From: a bacterium
GTDB lineage: Bacteria > JAMORN01
Assembly: GCA_027063545.1 (NCBI GenBank)
Contig: JAMORN010000180.1
Location: 1 to 27,783 of the forward strand
Length of the DNA stretch: 27,783 nt
Direction of reading: 5' to 3'
Position 1 is the stretch's first letter. Each line of letters opens with the position of its first letter. Below are positions 19,588-26,345 of this stretch, one piece after another. Position numbers and translations under genes: made by a program. Under the pieces are notes generated by a model. That model saw only the letters and a list, made by a program, of their open reading frames with translations. It made no database searches and was not told the DNA's origin.

Positions 19588-20994
19588 TTAAACCCTTCCA
19601 TAAATATCTTCAAATCTCACAATATCATCTTCCCCTAAATAATCTCCTATTTGAACCTCAATAATTTCCAACTCTTCATCATAAGGATTTTCAAGTCTAT
19701 GTTTTGTTTCTTTTGGTATGGAAACTTGATGTTTTATATCAAGATCTAAAATATCATCTCCAACCTGAGCTTTTCCTTTTCCTCTAACAACAACCCAAAA
19801 CTCTGATCTATGATAATGAAGTTGAAGACTTAGCTTTTGATGAGGCTTTACAACAATTGTTTTTATTTTATATCCTTCTCCTTCGGATAATACAACAAAA
19901 AATCCCCAAGGTCTATATGAGAAGATATGGTCTGTTCCTTGTACAAGATTTTTATTTTTTAATACTTCAACCACTTCTCTTACCTTTTGAGATTCTCCTT
20001 CTTTTAAAATTAAAAGAGCATCATCTGTATCAATTATATTTATATTCGAAATCCCTACAGCTGCAATTACTTTATTTTTATAATTTATATTTTTATTAAC
20101 AATTAACGACTCTTTTGTATCAATTGTAATGATATTTTCTCCGATTTTTACATTGGAGTTTTTATCTTTATCCATAACCTTATATAAACTATCCCAGCTT
20201 CCAATATCAGACCATGTTAAACTCATTGGAATAATAACAGAGTCTTTTGTTTTTTCCATAATAGCATAATCAATAGAAATAGACTCAAATTCATCAAAAT
20301 GCTCTATTAATTTCTCAAAATTATATCTCTTATATACATTAAATATCTTAGGAGCATACTTTTTATAATCATTAACAATTTTTTTCACGCTAAACATAAA
20401 CATTCCAGAATTCCAGAAGTATTCTCCTGTAGCTACATATTCTATTGCTGTATCAATATCTGGTTTTTCTGTAAATTTTTCTATATAATAAGCAGAGCTA
20501 TCTATTTTTTTTCCTGTTTTTATATATCCATACCCTGTTTCTGGAGCTGTAGGAGTTATTCCAAAAGTTATAATATAGTTATTTGCAAGATTTTTAGCAT
20601 ATTCTAAGTAATCAATAAATCTTCCTTTAGGAGATATAATATGGTCAGATGGGGATACAAAAACAATTTCATCATCTTTTGCTTTCATTTTTTCTTGAAT
20701 ATATTTAATTCCAAATATAATAGCAGGAGCAGTATTTTTTCCTTGAGGTTCTTTTATTACATGAACTTTATTATCTATATTTAAATCTTCTAATTCTTTT
20801 TTAATTAAAAAGTAATAGTTTTTATTTGTAATAACTAATATATCCTCAGGTCTTACATACCCTAAGAATCTTTCAACAGTTAACGCAAAAAAAGATTTAT
20901 TATGAAATAGTTTTAAAAATTGTTTAGGATAATGTTCCCTAGACTCTGGCCAAAGACGAGTTCCTTTACCTCCTGCAAGGATTATTACCTTCAT
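19588..20994 (-). CDS. manC: Mannose-1-phosphate guanylyltransferase / mannose-6-phosphate isomerase
   Basis: ILAGGKGTRLWPESR..YPKQFL, EP.GKNTAPAI, PSDH, PETGYGYI, F.EKPD, WNSGMF, SIDYAIMEK, WSDIGSW, C-terminal cupin RPWG...SLQLHYHRSE.W...HRLENP; SD AGGAGG. Confidence 0.97.
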   Translation of the reverse strand: MKVIILAGGKGTRLWPESREHYPKQFLKLFHNKSFFALTVERFLGYVRPEDILVITNKNYYFLIKKELEDLNIDNKVHVIKEPQGKNTAPAIIFGIKYIQEKMKAKDDEIVFVSPSDHIISPKGRFIDYLEYAKNLANNYIITFGITPTAPETGYGYIKTGKKIDSSAYYIEKFTEKPDIDTAIEYVATGEYFWNSGMFMFSVKKIVNDYKKYAPKIFNVYKRYNFEKLIEHFDEFESISIDYAIMEKTKDSVIIPMSLTWSDIGSWDSLYKVMDKDKNSNVKIGENIITIDTKESLIVNKNINYKNKVIAAVGISNINIIDTDDALLILKEGESQKVREVVEVLKNKNLVQGTDHIFSYRPWGFFVVLSEGEGYKIKTIVVKPHQKLSLQLHYHRSEFWVVVRGKGKAQVGDDILDLDIKHQVSIPKETKHRLENPYDEELEIIEVQIGDYLGEDDIVRFEDIYGRV

Positions 20995-22859
20995 TCTTCA
21001 CCTCCTAACCTTATATATTTATGTGCTATTTTTCTAAGATTCTTATCTAATAAAATATGAAATGTCTGAAGTCTATTCAAGGCTTTTTTAGGAATTTGGG
21101 ATAGAGGAATATATATATAATATTTTTTAAAAGTTTTAATAATCTCTTTTTTCCTTTCGTCAGGTGGTTTTTTAGCAATATATAGAATAAATTTACTTTT
21201 TGTATAATAACATAGTCCATATAGAAGTTTTTCTGATAGAGAATAGTTTTTAAATTCTTTATTCCTTTCTAATATTATCCAGAAATCAGGAATATTTTTA
21301 GGGGGATAAATTAAAAATAAGCCACCATATTTAGCTTTGAATATTCCTTTATGAGTTTGATATCTTTTAAAAGCAGTGGAGTAATATCCTAATGTTGATT
21401 CATTATGATGTTCTGCATACAGGATTCCTTTCATAGGATAAAAATGATCATTATCTTCATCAAAAAATATAATTGTTCCTTCAATATCTACATTATAAAA
21501 TCTTAAATCATACTCTTTTATCAAAATATTCTCTTTATAAAACTCTTTTAACATCTCTTTTATTGCAATACCATCTTTAAGTCCAGAAGAAAATTCTTCT
21601 ATTCTAGAATGTTTTTCTCTTAACAAAGATTTACCAGTTTCTTTTATTTTTTTTATATAGTTTTCTAGAAATATATCTTCAGGAGGATATGAAACTATAT
21701 GATAAAAATGAAAATCATCATAAGAAAATTTATAATCTTCAATCTTTTCTTTTTTTATTTTAAACTTTAAATCAACCCACTCTTTAGGAGACGTATCAAA
21801 GTAGTTAAAAAAGATTTCTGTACTTTTTTTATTGGGTTTTTGAATGAGATCAGCTAGTATCTTTATAGATGTCTCTTTAGAATAGGTTTTTCTATTAAAT
21901 GGGTAAAATCTAGCATTCTTTAAAAAAAGAAAAGCAAAATAGTCATCATCAATAACCTTTCTAATAGATTTTATTAAAGTTATTAAATCAGGAAAAAGCC
22001 TTTTATTCATTAATGTATAATTTCTAGCAAGTTTTAAGATATGATTTAATGTTTGAGGAGATATATTTTTTTCTTTATGTTTTTTGAGATAATCATCTCT
22101 TGTTTTTATTAAGAGATATTTTATTATTTCTTCATAAGTTGATTCTTTAGAAAAGATGTCTAAACTTTGGGATATATATTTATATACAATAAAAGGAATT
22201 TCCCCAGTGATGTAATGAAGATACTTTTCAGGAATATTGTATAATCCTATTTCTTTAGGAGAAAAATTAAAGTCTGATAAAAACTCAAAGTTTCTATATA
22301 TATCCTTTATTTTTAAAAAATCAAGAATATCAACTATAAATAAAATTTTATTATATTTTAAAGTAAGATCAAAGAGTTTTCCGCTTATTATTTTATATCT
22401 TTTTATATCTTCTTTTGTGTAAAAATCTTCGGTTATTTTGGGAATAAGTGTTAATAAATATTCGAGATTGTCAATAAAGTTTAATGAATATGGGTCTGGA
22501 TAATAGGATTCATGTAAATACTTTAATGTTAAAATATTACTATCAACAAAATACAAAGGAATATCTTCTTCTACAGCCCATTTTATAGCTTCTATAGTCG
22601 CTTCTGAAGGATCTATAGGAATAATGATATTATCATATTCTGGATCCTGGTATAATACACATGTTATTTCTGGAAGTCTTTTAATTCCTTCAATAACATA
22701 AGGCTTAGTAAATTCTGGGAGATCTACAGCTATAGTATCAAAATTATTTTCTAATAGAAATTCTTTTAGAAAATGAGTCCATATAAGACTTTTATGAACA
22801 ACAGGAAAAATGGTTATCTCAGGAGATAATTGAAATATAGGATGATTTTTATACATCAT
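20991..22859 (-). CDS. Uncharacterised ~622-aa MoxR partner protein (TraB/YehM-like N-terminus, possible degenerate VWA-like C-terminus)
   Basis: Long ORF; ATG at 22859 overlaps the MoxR stop (ATGATGTATAA) and its stop overlaps the manC start (ATGA). Domain calls are motif-level inference only. Confidence 0.8.
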   Translation of the reverse strand: MMYKNHPIFQLSPEITIFPVVHKSLIWTHFLKEFLLENNFDTIAVDLPEFTKPYVIEGIKRLPEITCVLYQDPEYDNIIIPIDPSEATIEAIKWAVEEDIPLYFVDSNILTLKYLHESYYPDPYSLNFIDNLEYLLTLIPKITEDFYTKEDIKRYKIISGKLFDLTLKYNKILFIVDILDFLKIKDIYRNFEFLSDFNFSPKEIGLYNIPEKYLHYITGEIPFIVYKYISQSLDIFSKESTYEEIIKYLLIKTRDDYLKKHKEKNISPQTLNHILKLARNYTLMNKRLFPDLITLIKSIRKVIDDDYFAFLFLKNARFYPFNRKTYSKETSIKILADLIQKPNKKSTEIFFNYFDTSPKEWVDLKFKIKKEKIEDYKFSYDDFHFYHIVSYPPEDIFLENYIKKIKETGKSLLREKHSRIEEFSSGLKDGIAIKEMLKEFYKENILIKEYDLRFYNVDIEGTIIFFDEDNDHFYPMKGILYAEHHNESTLGYYSTAFKRYQTHKGIFKAKYGGLFLIYPPKNIPDFWIILERNKEFKNYSLSEKLLYGLCYYTKSKFILYIAKKPPDERKKEIIKTFKKYYIYIPLSQIPKKALNRLQTFHILLDKNLRKIAHKYIRLGGEE

Positions 22860-23793
22860 CGTCGCTATCAAAATTATTTAAAAAATCTAAAAAGTCATCA
22901 TCTTCATCTATATCATAATTTTCTATGTATTCTGTTTCAGAAGATGAGTTCTTTGCATTTTCTAATTCTTGTTTGACTTTATCTATAGGTTTACCAACAA
23001 CAGCAGAAAAACTAGAATAAAATAATTCTTTTATTTCATTTAAAGATTCATGCCCTTTTAATTTTTTGTTTAATAGTCTAAGGGCATTTATAGCATCTCT
23101 AACAGAATATGGAAGATTATATTCATGGAGTTGTTGCATGAATTCAACGCAAATTTTTATAATATTATCTTTTAATAAAGGTAGATGATATTTTAATATT
23201 TTTAATTCATCTTCTTTGGAAGGAAATCCTATTTTTATATTAGGAGCAATTCTACTAGCTATATAATCTGGGATTTCAAACACACTAGAATCTTCATTAA
23301 CAGTTAAGGCTATTCTAAATTCAGGATGAGCCTCGAATTTTATTCCTAATGTATTTGAATATAAACTTCTTCTATGATCAAGAAGAGAAGCAAGAGTTGC
23401 CCAAGATTTTTCAGGCATTCTATTGGCTTCATCTAAAATCACAACCCCGCCTTTTATTACTGCAGCAAGAAGAGGAGAGCCTATGTATATTATTTGTCTA
23501 TCTCTATTTAATACAGGGGTTATAACAAGATCTTCAGGTCTTGTATCAGCAGAAACCTGCATAATATACAAATCTAACCCCAATTCTTTTGCTGCAGCTC
23601 CAACGAGTGTAGTTTTACCTATACCGGGAATTCCAGAAATTTTAGGTGTCATGGGAATATCTTCCTCAAAGGCTTTATAAAAAGCAGCCATCACATCATT
23701 AAGATAATCCTTAGAGCCTATCCAAGAAAATTTTGAAACATCTTCACTATCTGGTAAAACTATCTCAATATCACCAATTCTATATCTTTCCAT
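22849..23793 (-). CDS. MoxR-family (AAA_5-like) AAA+ ATPase
   Basis: Walker A GIPGIGKT, DTRPEDL, Walker B VILDEANR, LLDHRR, HPEFRIALTVN, IASR, SVRD lid motif; acidic tail. Start probably ATG 23793 (MERYRIG). Confidence 0.88.
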   Translation of the reverse strand: MERYRIGDIEIVLPDSEDVSKFSWIGSKDYLNDVMAAFYKAFEEDIPMTPKISGIPGIGKTTLVGAAAKELGLDLYIMQVSADTRPEDLVITPVLNRDRQIIYIGSPLLAAVIKGGVVILDEANRMPEKSWATLASLLDHRRSLYSNTLGIKFEAHPEFRIALTVNEDSSVFEIPDYIASRIAPNIKIGFPSKEDELKILKYHLPLLKDNIIKICVEFMQQLHEYNLPYSVRDAINALRLLNKKLKGHESLNEIKELFYSSFSAVVGKPIDKVKQELENAKNSSSETEYIENYDIDEDDDFLDFLNNFDSDDDV

Positions 23794-23835
23794 GTAGAAA
23801 AATATAATAAAAAAATAAAACAAAAACAAAAAAAA

Positions 23836-23997
23836 CTAGCCAGTTACATCTATCATATTGCCTAAAGCAGGATTATTACCAAAATGAATTTCCAAATTTG
23901 ATTGTATCATTTGTTTTGCTAATTCGATTTGTTTTTGATTTGCAGCTGTAAGCATTGTTTTGTTAAGTTCTAATAAATTGTTATTTTGGATTTGCAT
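23836..23997 (-). CDS. YjfB-family (putative motility) small protein, 53 aa, missing from the ORF track
   Basis: MQIQNNNLLELNKTMLTAANQKQIELAKQMIQSNLEIHFGNNPALGNMIDVTG*; SD AAGGAGG at 24004-24010; Q/N/A-rich helix ending in the LG.xID.. motif of YjfB-like proteins. Confidence 0.8.
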   Translation of the reverse strand: MQIQNNNLLELNKTMLTAANQKQIELAKQMIQSNLEIHFGNNPALGNMIDVTG

Positions 23998-24063: not shown

Positions 24064-24411
24064 TTAAAAATCTCCAGAATTTGAAAATAAATTCCCATAA
24101 AATTTTTCTATATTTAACAAGAATAAATTTAAAATACCTTTATCAATAAGTTCATACTCTGAAGAATTTAAAATCTTTTTTACTTTCTCAATAATCTCTT
24201 CATCATCAACAATTCCTAATATTAGCTTTCCATTTATACTATTTGAAGCAAAATTATTTTTCTTAAAAAAGATAGGGATATCATACGTAATTATATGTTC
24301 AAAAGATGTTATATCTGTGTAAAACATATTATATATTCCTAATTCCATAAATACACTAATTATCAAATTTAAATAAGAATTATCTTTTAGTACTAGTACC
24401 ATTAGATACAT
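24064..24411 (-). CDS. PII-like (GlnB-like ferredoxin fold) small protein
   Basis: beta-alpha-beta start MYLMVLVL...LNLIISVFMELGI, central loop with PIF, KLILGIVDDEEIIEKV, C-terminal GILNLFLLNIEKFYG resembling the PII G..F..PV...G strand. Confidence 0.6.
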   Translation of the reverse strand: MYLMVLVLKDNSYLNLIISVFMELGIYNMFYTDITSFEHIITYDIPIFFKKNNFASNSINGKLILGIVDDEEIIEKVKKILNSSEYELIDKGILNLFLLNIEKFYGNLFSNSGDF

Positions 24412-25723
24412 TATTTTTCTCCTTTTTGTGGTGTTTTTTTACATATGCAATATGAGATGTTTTTTCAGAATATCTTTTGTATGCTTCTCCAGATTTTAAT
24501 AAAGCATATTTAACCATTATAGGTCCTATAATTTCTGTTAGAAGAGTGCTACCCAAAACAATTCCTATAATTTGATTTGAATATTGAGGGAATTCATGGA
24601 TAGAAATTAAAGTTAATGCTATAGCAACACCAGCTTGAGAAATTAGACCAAAACCTAAATATTTAGATATAACATCTGGAGCTTTTGCTATTTTTCCTCC
24701 TATATATGCTCCAAAAATTTTTCCGAAAATTCTTGCAAGGAAGAATAGAATAATAAAGAATAGATATTTTTTAAAGAAAATAATTTTTAGTCTAGCACCT
24801 GCCAGAAAGAAAAATAAAACATAAAAAGGTTGGGAGATATCATCAATAGAGTGAACAAGATTATTTCTATTTCTGGAATAATTAACAATATAAAACCCTA
24901 AAGACATAGCAGCCAGTAATACCGAAAAATGTAAATTTTCAATATTAAATGATTCAAAAAAATCAGGAAGTATTTTATCTATCATAGCAAATAAAATAAA
25001 AAGTATAGCCAAGGTAAGATTTATAAATTCAGGCTTTATTTTACTTTTTTTAGATATATTATCCAAAATTATTCCAAATAATAATCCTGTAATAATACTT
25101 ATAGTTATTTGAAACAATCCTTTAAGAAAAATTAAAACATAAAACCAAAAATTTACATTATGAGAAGAAAGTATAGAATGTACATATGAAGCACTAAAAG
25201 CATATATCATTATACCAATAGCATCGTCAGATCCAACAACAGTAAGAAGAGTTTGTGTTAAAATCCCTTTAGCTTTAAGTTCTTGAATAACAAGAAGGGT
25301 AACAGCAGGTGCTGTAGCACTTCCAATAGCAGCAAGGAGAACTATAAGTTCTTTTGATATGTTTTTTTCTGTAAAGTAATTGGTAAATAAAAAGAAAAAT
25401 AAAGTTAAAAAAAATAAAATAGATAAAAAAGCAAAAATAGACTCTCCTAAGGCTACAAAAATAGGAACTCTCCCCATTTGTTTTAATTCTTTAGTCCTCA
25501 GTTCTGCTCCTATAAAGTAAGCAACAAAGACAAGAGTGATATTACTGATAACTGATAAGTTTGTTACCAAAAATGAATAATTGAATAGATCAAGAATATT
25601 ACCAACGAGCACACCAGAAATAATATAGCCAGTAACCATTGGAATTTTAATTTTAGATAAAAGCTTTCCCCCATAGAAACCTAAGAATAGTGAAATACCT
25701 ATAAAAAGTATATAATCACTCAT
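24380..25723 (-). CDS. Cation:proton antiporter (CPA2 / Na_H_Exchanger family)
   Basis: About 12-13 TM segments; IPMVTGYIISGVLVG, FIGAEL, ATAPAVT, DDAIG (ion-binding DD), FFFLAGARL, R.FGK, LISQAGVAIAL. Confidence 0.92.
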   Translation of the reverse strand: MSDYILFIGISLFLGFYGGKLLSKIKIPMVTGYIISGVLVGNILDLFNYSFLVTNLSVISNITLVFVAYFIGAELRTKELKQMGRVPIFVALGESIFAFLSILFFLTLFFFLFTNYFTEKNISKELIVLLAAIGSATAPAVTLLVIQELKAKGILTQTLLTVVGSDDAIGIMIYAFSASYVHSILSSHNVNFWFYVLIFLKGLFQITISIITGLLFGIILDNISKKSKIKPEFINLTLAILFILFAMIDKILPDFFESFNIENLHFSVLLAAMSLGFYIVNYSRNRNNLVHSIDDISQPFYVLFFFLAGARLKIIFFKKYLFFIILFFLARIFGKIFGAYIGGKIAKAPDVISKYLGFGLISQAGVAIALTLISIHEFPQYSNQIIGIVLGSTLLTEIIGPIMVKYALLKSGEAYKRYSEKTSHIAYVKKHHKKEKNNVSNGTSTKR

Positions 25724-25733
25724 AATAGAAATA

Positions 25734-26201
25734 CTATTTTAAATTTTCAAAATCTTCTAATATTTTATATAATTCTTCATTATTTGTACATTTTAATAAT
25801 CTTTCTTTAAAATCAGAAGTTAGAAACATTCTGGATATTTTCCCTATAAGTTGTATATGAAGACTTCTATCTTTAGGATTTGACGCAAACATAATAACAA
25901 TATATACAGGTTTACCATCAAAAGAATCGTAATTTTTTATAGGTTTTTTAAATATATTAAATGAAATTGTTAAAGTTTTTACAGCATCAGTAACAGCATG
26001 AGGAAGAGCAAGTCCATTACCTACACCTGTTGTATATATTTTTTCTCTTTCAAAGATGTCCCTTTTTAATTTTTCAAAGTCAAGAATATTTTTTGATTTT
26101 TTAAATTTATTTAGTATAAAATTTAAAGCCTTTTCTTTATCTTCTATTTCAAGGTCAAAAGAATTAATTTCAGGTTCAAAATAATCTATCAATTCTATCA
26201 T
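25734..26201 (-). CDS. Stand-alone PTS EIIA domain protein (Fru/Mtl/Ntr-type, PTS_EIIA_2)
   Basis: FERE...TTGVGNGLALPHA with the phosphorylatable His; FDGKPV; HIQLIGKISR. Confidence 0.92.
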   Translation of the reverse strand: MIELIDYFEPEINSFDLEIEDKEKALNFILNKFKKSKNILDFEKLKRDIFEREKIYTTGVGNGLALPHAVTDAVKTLTISFNIFKKPIKNYDSFDGKPVYIVIMFASNPKDRSLHIQLIGKISRMFLTSDFKERLLKCTNNEELYKILEDFENLK

Positions 26202-26243
26202 ATTTTTCTCCTATCGATTTTTTATTTTATTTCTAAAATTACA

Positions 26244-26272
26244 TTGATTTTTTTATACATTTTATATATAAT
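26244..26272 (+). promoter_or_regulatory. Candidate sigma-70 promoter for the solute-binding protein gene
   Basis: TTGATT (26244-26249), 17-nt spacer, TATAAT-like -10 box in the divergent intergenic region. Weak evidence in such AT-rich DNA. Confidence 0.35.
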
Positions 26273-26345
26273 ATAATAAATAAAAAATATTAATAACAAA
26301 TTTTATTTTAAATAAAATAAAATCAGAAAAGAACAAGGAGATTAT

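Follow-up and report, generated by a model that had tools for sequence, protein, structure and literature searches.

Why should a protein of the phosphotransferase system (PTS), a cation/proton antiporter, and a divergent PII-fold protein be encoded side by side, and do the two small proteins act on the transporter between them? The question is raised by a stretch of 27,783 nucleotides (nt) of contig JAMORN010000180.1 (assembly GCA_027063545.1), which was examined as a whole and is called the window here. Positions 24064-26201 of its minus strand are filled by three open reading frames (ORFs), which encode a stand-alone EIIA, an antiporter of the cation/proton antiporter (CPA) type, and the PII-like protein, in this order. 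EIIA and antiporter genes are 10 nt apart, and the antiporter and PII-like ORFs share 32 nt; on both values the ORF map agrees with a preliminary description of the locus. The start codon of the PII-like gene matches that of its homologues, whose N-terminus reads MxLLVxVL, and the overlap is thereby confirmed. In our judgment the three genes are likely to form one operon, consisting of an antiporter and two cytoplasmic regulators that would act on it after translation.

The triad is a genuine functional unit that is conserved, and not a chance adjacency. Sequence comparison and the analogy to an Escherichia coli system further suggest that a NapA-like electrogenic antiporter is probably gated post-translationally by the state of the PTS, with the PII-like protein serving as an adaptor in trans. 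Cation/proton antiporters set the cytoplasmic pH, the sodium and potassium levels, and the cell volume, and for bacterial CPA2 and Mrp systems without an RCK domain we know of no fast regulatory mechanism. If the proposal is true, then in many phyla with a permease-less PTS ion and pH homeostasis would be tied to the phosphorelay that depends on phosphoenolpyruvate (PEP), and hence to the carbon and energy state; otherwise unexplained regulatory PTS systems would gain a function, and the PII superfamily a new branch whose partner is another signaling protein.

Conservation of the module

A profile of the PII-like family was searched against 1.84 billion representative proteins and detected 967 members at E ≤ 1e-3, 402 of them at E ≤ 1e-10. 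Family forms of about 275 amino acids (aa) proved to be fusions of an EIIA_2 domain with the PII-like domain, and a search with one such fusion as the query returned at least 435 protein clusters, one of them from the cultured Spirochaeta isovalerica. In public annotation these clusters are PTS IIA ("PTS sugar transporter subunit IIA") or hypothetical only and the small proteins are "hypothetical," and the link between the components of the module is therefore invisible in current databases. The same profile was applied to 401 genomes, in most cases one to three from each family, and matched at E ≤ 1e-5 in 88, the weakest of which may represent canonical PII proteins; none of them is nearer to the genome of the window than "same domain." The loci that were compared in detail comprise 80 loci with 6-kb flanks and the window, i.e., 81 loci from 68 genomes with 82 PII-like genes, whose neighbors were scored with hidden Markov models built for the purpose and then checked against Pfam.

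A CPA gene lies at most three genes away at 52 of the 81 loci. The Pfam family Na_H_Exchanger was recovered (1e-5) in 57 of the 66 neighboring CPA ORFs, and none of the 66 matched RCK/TrkA at 1e-5. Two further transporter types occur, namely, Mrp antiporters, for which MnhE was taken as the marker (6/81 loci), and ClC exchangers with CBS domains (3/81 loci). EIIA is adjacent to or fused with 50 of the 82 PII-like genes, including 14 EIIA-PII-like fusions. The gene orders vary: EIIA-antiporter-PII-like, the type of the window, at 11 loci, EIIA-PII-like-antiporter at 10, antiporter-EIIA-PII-like at 3, and a CPA gene beside an EIIA-PII-like fusion at 13. Another 80 named loci were found with a 12-row alignment that is biased toward the Mrp-linked clade, and 73 of them show the order PII-like, EIIA, MnhE (Aerophobetes, Spirochaetota including Sphaerochaeta halotolerans, Moduliflexus, and others). 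HPr was present in 44 of the 45 genomes bearing an EIIA-linked module, compared with 292 of the 401 genomes overall.

Conservation of the triad had been named at the outset as one of the checks to make, and the module indeed recurs across distant genomes, in several orders and with three transporter classes. The EIIA/PII-like pair is found beside three unrelated classes of transporters and in several gene orders, and it also occurs in fused form; chance is thereby excluded as the cause of this neighborhood. The ClC-linked loci (L049:3716-5524, L054:696-2474, and L057:3719-5575, from two genome families) carry the exchanger gene, for a chloride/proton exchanger with CBS domains, on the same strand after the EIIA/PII-like pair, whose range thus extends beyond cation antiporters.

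The survey also yielded several variants. Loci of the EIIA-PII-like-antiporter type (L058:6360-8985, L071, L076, L081, L082, and L095) have, after the EIIA/PII-like pair, a tandem of two CPA-like genes for proteins of about 404 aa and then about 447 aa, the first of which is so divergent that it is barely detected or missed by Pfam; the two products may form a heteromeric antiporter in which one subunit is degenerate. The PII-like domain is moreover fused to a CBS pair (P0123, 289 aa), follows a PrmC-like methyltransferase (P0046, 422 aa), or stands at the C-terminus of an 862-aa protein that has no other Pfam match (L080:3728-6316). Genome G037 (loci L003/L047), a member of the clade with the best-conserved PII-like/EIIA/Mrp operon, yielded no HPr match, yet the EIIA histidine is conserved; genome G357 combines a conserved EIIA histidine with a weak HPr match only (4.2e-4). 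Either HPr is too divergent or unassembled in these genomes, or another phospho-donor is used.

The small protein has a predicted PII fold and lacks the PII nucleotide site

The PII-like protein has no Pfam match and falls below the cut-off of the P-II family (PF00543), and the canonical P-II family has no match anywhere in the assembly; some relatives of the protein do pass the cut-off (36.7 bits versus 25). An AlphaFold2 (AF2) model based on a 111-sequence alignment reached a predicted local distance difference test (pLDDT) value of 85 and displays the order E-H-E-loop-E-H-E. Every top match of the model in a Foldseek search of the PDB was a PII protein, including GlnK, GlnB, SbtB (7r31, 7egk), and PotN (7o4x). 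The family profile matched solved PII proteins over the full length (E = 2.4e-7), and the look-alikes in the ESM Atlas were "putative P-II family" clusters, hypothetical-protein clusters, and one EIIA fusion cluster. Model, structural matches, and profile identify the small protein as a predicted PII-fold protein, and the loss of the glycine motifs is in line with the early statement that it has a PII fold devoid of canonical GlnB motifs.

The nucleotide and 2-oxoglutarate site of canonical PII proteins comprises G27, G35, G37, G87, G89, K90, R101, and R103 in E. coli numbering. Family positions 28, 36, and 38 are the counterparts of G27, G35, and G37 at the base of the T-loop, and here the protein of the window has N28, S36, and E38; it keeps G92, and a leucine (L94) replaces a B-loop glycine in this protein only. 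Counterparts of K90, R101, and R103 are missing throughout the family, with hydrophobic or glycine residues at these sites in the profile alignment. When the 82 PII-like domains are placed in a maximum-likelihood tree, the protein of the window, which has an unusual composition, sits on a long branch, and it falls inside a clade of 31 rows with 99% support. An antiporter or EIIA adjoins every row of this clade, to which all 11 loci with the gene order of the window belong. Glycines at positions 28, 36, and 38 occur in 3, 7, and 11 of its 31 rows versus 43, 45, and 41 of the 51 rows of the sister clade, which retains two GxG motifs, that at the base of the T-loop and that of the B-loop. The T-loop residues P46 and F48, in turn, are retained in 31 and 30 of the 31 rows of the clade of the window. 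A function of the PII-like protein as an EIIB-like phospho-acceptor, which was also considered, is ruled out by the lack of any conserved cysteine or histidine in the family.

The distribution of these residues bears on an explanation modeled on SbtB, according to which sensing falls mainly to the PII-like protein, which would bind cyclic di-AMP (c-di-AMP) or an adenine nucleotide and gate the antiporter via its T-loop, with EIIA as a second, independent input. The fold does resemble SbtB and PotN in the Foldseek comparison, the sister clade retains both glycine motifs, and a diadenylate cyclase domain is encoded in the genome of the window. c-di-AMP commonly controls cation/proton antiporters, e.g., CpaA and KhtT. 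The nucleotide-site glycines are, however, largely lost in the clade of the window (and replaced by N28, S36, E38, and L94 in the window itself), the basic residues are absent family-wide, and the natural fusions argue for joint rather than separate action of EIIA and the PII-like protein. We therefore consider this explanation unlikely for the triad of the window. Since the glycines are gone, a nucleotide input via the PII-like protein is unlikely in this clade as judged from its residues, whereas it is plausible for the glycine-rich sister clade. The original idea that the transporter integrates the PTS state with an adenylate or cyclic-nucleotide signal thus survives in part: the unit is conserved and the phospho-accepting histidine is kept, but the nucleotide half is doubtful. 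With the glycine-rich site lost in its clade, the PII-like protein of the window is more likely an adaptor than a sensor of ATP, ADP, or 2-oxoglutarate.

Genetic decay has to be considered as well, in which case the PII-like gene would be a functionless remnant in a reduced, AT-rich genome and only EIIA, if anything, would regulate the antiporter. The protein belongs to the longest-branch class of the tree and has an odd composition, several family-conserved residues are lost, and a word-indexed search with the single sequence recovered only the query itself, the relatives having come from genome and profile searches. Such decay is nevertheless very improbable, given that the ORF is intact, that its start agrees with that of the homologues and is preceded by a strong AAGGAG site, and that the fold is confidently predicted. 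The hydrophobic core and residues G25, P46-x-F48, K62, and G106 are kept, and the loss of glycines is typical of the whole clade and not peculiar to this gene.

The EIIA protein and the phosphotransferase system of the genome

The EIIA protein matches Pfam PF00359 (PTS_EIIA_2) with E = 2.2e-32 and 112.5 bits at a cut-off of 27 bits. Its phospho-acceptor His68 within GLALPHA is intact, which bears out what had been read from the locus at first, and the corresponding alignment column contains histidine in all 54 complete EIIA sequences, i.e., 52 module-linked proteins and the two other paralogues from the genome of the window. The protein scores below the NCBIfam PtsN equivalog TIGR01419 (60.4 versus 138.7 bits) and NF008145 (46 versus 221 bits), and linkage to rpoN is absent at this locus. 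By sequence it is an Ntr/Fru-type EIIA that would work like PtsN, with PtsN orthology not demonstrated.

The assembly of this genome (1.57 Mb, approximately 25% GC) is 82.7% complete. EI (a 597-aa ORF) and HPr are encoded side by side on one contig (C99), and three stand-alone EIIA_2 genes were found, that of the window included. A search of the 82.7%-complete assembly for PTS_EIIC, EIIC-GAT, PTS_IIB, and HPr kinase found none, in keeping with the former statement that EIIA stands without EIIB and EIIC. As far as the assembly shows, the gene content points to a purely regulatory PTS. One Na_H_Exchanger gene was detected in the assembly, and it sits between an EIIA gene and the sole PII-superfamily gene, and the search with the family profile likewise detected a single member of this PII-like family.

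The P-H motif is kept in both other EIIA paralogues, which are located on contigs C159 (L013:1429-1908) and C171 (L014:229-771). Each adjoins a gene for a protein of about 466 aa that is rich in tyrosine and asparagine and has the look of a putative outer membrane beta-barrel.

A bare NapA-like antiporter

The antiporter matches Pfam Na_H_Exchanger (PF00999) with residues 12 to 408 of 447 (1.9e-25). The Pfam search revealed no RCK/TrkA or CorC domain and no other domain, so that the antiporter indeed lacks the C-terminal KTN/RCK domain, as the preliminary description had it. A profile of the module-linked homologues compared with the PDB scored best with NapA of Thermus (4bwz, E = 2.9e-56), followed by KefC (1.7e-30), and the CPA1 proteins NhaP and NHE came behind both; a phmmer search of the PDB with the single antiporter sequence gave no match. 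The electrogenic signature is present, with D166-D167 in transmembrane helix (TM) 5 and K335 in TM10 aligned to D156-D157 and K305 of NapA. Profile and signature residues thus assign the protein to the NapA-like CPA2 antiporters. Because Thermus NapA is also devoid of an RCK domain, the bare architecture is not unusual by itself.

The C-terminus extends 31 aa beyond the end of the family profile, compared with 4 aa in the median of 63 homologues, and the stretch SHIAYVKKHHKKEK is part of this extension. The codons for KKEK in the tail double as the ribosome-binding site (AAGGAG) of the PII-like gene, and the last ten codons of the tail overlap that gene. The tail had been regarded as a possible docking or pH-sensing element; as a conserved docking element it is ruled out, because it is lineage-specific and because its codons serve the next gene. 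A local role in the antiporter of the window may still exist.

A candidate phosphorylation-controlled gate

In the mechanism proposed here, EI and HPr would phosphorylate His68 of EIIA according to the PEP/pyruvate state, i.e., the state of carbon and energy. The PII-like protein would, presumably as a trimer, sit on the cytoplasmic face of the antiporter, to which it may bind via the P-x-F motif of its T-loop, and EIIA would bind the PII-like protein in only one of its phosphorylation states and thereby lock or release the transporter. The PII-like protein could be regarded, by analogy, as a trans-acting counterpart of the CorC domain of the E. coli antiporter YcgO. In the version that we sketch, the antiporter would be inhibited by unphosphorylated EIIA and released when EIIA is phosphorylated, the direction being a guess; antiport would then follow the PEP/pyruvate state as read by EI and HPr. 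The existence of natural fusions supports a direct partnership between EIIA and the PII-like protein.

Several points weigh against this gating of the antiporter through EIIA and the PII-like protein. The AF2 model of a natural EIIA-PII-like fusion has well-predicted domains (pLDDT 86) but a predicted template modeling (pTM) score of 0.60 and no confident interface. The PII-like protein of the window is an odd representative of its family in branch length and composition. The counted genomes are related to varying degrees, and the counts are not independent trials. Furthermore, a CPA gene but no EIIA adjoins 15 of the 82 PII-like genes, which shows that EIIA is not obligatory, and 20 of the 81 family loci are without a transporter within three genes, so that the link of the family to antiporters is not a strict one.

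The latter loci would also fit mere co-expression, in which the two small proteins would control something else, for example transcription, metabolism, or K+ uptake, and are co-transcribed with the antiporter on account of a shared role in ion homeostasis. Many partners are known for PtsN of E. coli, TrkA, KdpD, and YcgO among them (PMC13104625). The association of the pair with three unrelated antiporter classes (CPA2, Mrp, and ClC) in several orders is, however, hard to understand without a direct link, and the absence of RCK/TrkA matches from the module-linked CPA proteins is what would be expected if the pair supplied the missing regulatory domain. Mere co-expression accordingly appears rather improbable, and gating of the antiporter by the PTS state via the PII-like adaptor remains the reading that we prefer.

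A more far-reaching idea, put forward tentatively and with less than even confidence, is that the EIIA/PII-like pair might be a portable phosphorylation-controlled gate that is placed on proton-coupled ion exchangers of no fewer than three unrelated classes (NapA-like CPA2, Mrp, and ClC) and replaces a built-in RCK or CorC domain. One PII-like clade might then still sense a nucleotide, and that of the window might have given up this ability to serve purely as an EIIA adaptor that clamps the transporter. The window itself contributes an instance of the module from a very AT-rich lineage without close relatives, in a genome whose PTS has no permease found in the assembly, and from a clade that as a whole gave up the PII nucleotide-site glycines and kept the P-x-F loop. 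Sphaerochaeta halotolerans, Pleomorphochaeta, and Spirochaeta isovalerica are cultured carriers, which makes the EIIA/PII-like module testable.

Relation to known systems

The preliminary description held that the known precedents were pairwise only, with EIIA-Ntr regulating K+ transport via TrkA or KdpD and SbtB regulating SbtA, and it missed the closest one, the interaction of PtsN with YcgO (PMC11808508; bioRxiv 10.64898/2026.08.14.744764). In E. coli, unphosphorylated PtsN binds the CorC domain of this K+/H+ antiporter via an interface that includes His73 and stabilizes CorC against the transport helices, by which efflux is inhibited, and the phosphomimic H73E abolishes binding (PMC11808508; bioRxiv 10.64898/2026.08.14.744764). 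Common to PtsN-YcgO (CvrA) and the triad are an EIIA of the same Pfam family and a regulatory PTS that does not serve sugar uptake; control by EIIA binding has been shown for YcgO and is proposed here. The differences are considerable, since YcgO is a CPA1 protein with its own RCK and CorC domains whereas the antiporter of the window is a bare CPA2 protein, and since a separate PII-fold protein is present here. Moreover, ptsN and ycgO are unlinked whereas the genes of the window are adjacent, with EIIA and PII-like parts fused in relatives, and the EIIA of the window misses the NCBIfam cut-off for PtsN.

Small PII-fold proteins encoded beside a membrane transporter are familiar from SbtB-SbtA, GlnK-AmtB, and PotN. 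In contrast to the clade of the window, these proteins sense nucleotides or 2-oxoglutarate via conserved glycine and basic residues, none of them is paired or fused with EIIA, and their transporters are not of the CPA, Mrp, or ClC type. PII-NG genes are reported to adjoin genes of CzcABC proton/cation antiporters (Sant'Anna et al. 2009, cited in PMC7726332). They resemble the present family as a divergent PII subgroup encoded beside proton-coupled cation efflux systems, but they are linked to CzcABC of the resistance-nodulation-division (RND) type, and the accessible portion of the account does not mention an EIIA partner (PMC7726332). No RND neighbors were found at the examined PII-like loci; the checked neighbors of about 1,000 aa beside some solitary family members, which as RND pumps would have provided a link to PII-NG, are subtilases.

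For NapA of Thermus thermophilus, we know of no described EIIA or PII-like partner. It is the best solved match (4bwz, 5bz2) and shares the DD motif, the TM10 lysine, and the lack of RCK with the antiporter of the window, which differs in bearing the 31-residue basic tail. LacS, finally, is likewise a secondary transporter regulated via an EIIA domain that HPr phosphorylates, but this domain is of the glucose type and fused to the transporter itself, and there is no PII-like component (PMC10710835).

The separate ideas are established, as K+ systems, an antiporter among them, are targets of EIIA-Ntr (PMC11808508, PMC13104625) and transporters are targets of PII proteins. A full-text literature search, for which most subscription journals were beyond reach, found no paper that brings EIIA, PII-like protein, and antiporter together, and the combined module appears to be undescribed.

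Features of the locus and its surroundings

The coordinates of the genes and elements of the triad are compiled in Table 1. A scan for sigma-70 consensus sites yielded numbers no higher than those in shuffled sequence and assigned no promoter, a terminator scan found none and was no better than shuffles, and an Rfam search of the window returned no RNA family.

Table 1. Genes, functional residues, and regulatory elements of the triad in the window.
Feature	Position	Strand	Basis
Stand-alone EIIA, fructose/mannitol/Ntr type by sequence, 155 aa	25734..26201	-	Pfam PF00359
Codon of phospho-acceptor His68, motif GNGLALPHA	25998..26000	-	Sequence reading
Shine-Dalgarno AGGAG, 6 nt upstream of EIIA start	26208..26212	-	Sequence reading
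AT-rich divergent intergenic region, 144 bp, presumed promoter region of the triad	26202..26345	.	ORF map
Predicted NapA-like CPA2 cation/proton antiporter, 447 aa, without cytoplasmic RCK or CorC domain	24380..25723	-	Pfam PF00999
Codons of Asp166-Asp167, CPA2 ion-binding DD motif	25223..25228	-	Family profile aligned to NapA
Codon of Lys335, counterpart of NapA Lys305	24719-24721	-	Family profile aligned to NapA
His/Lys-rich C-terminal antiporter tail, 31 residues, lineage-specific	24380..24472	-	Part beyond family profile end
Shine-Dalgarno AAGGAG of PII-like gene, 7 nt upstream of ATG, within antiporter KKEK codons	24419..24424	-	Sequence reading
Divergent protein of predicted PII fold, 115 aa, P46-x-F48 kept, PII glycine motifs lost	24064..24411	-	AF2, Foldseek, family profile, motif table

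The flanking genes on either side have no evident link to the triad. Upstream lies a divergent gene for a sugar-binding protein. On the downstream side the triad is followed by a yjfB-like gene and then a MoxR pair, with no terminator-like site between these downstream genes and the triad. The former is a 53-aa YjfB_motility-like ORF (weak Pfam match, 0.015) at 23836-23997, directly downstream and on the strand of the triad, and it is followed at 20991-23829, on the same strand, by the genes for a MoxR-type AAA_5 ATPase and a 626-aa partner.

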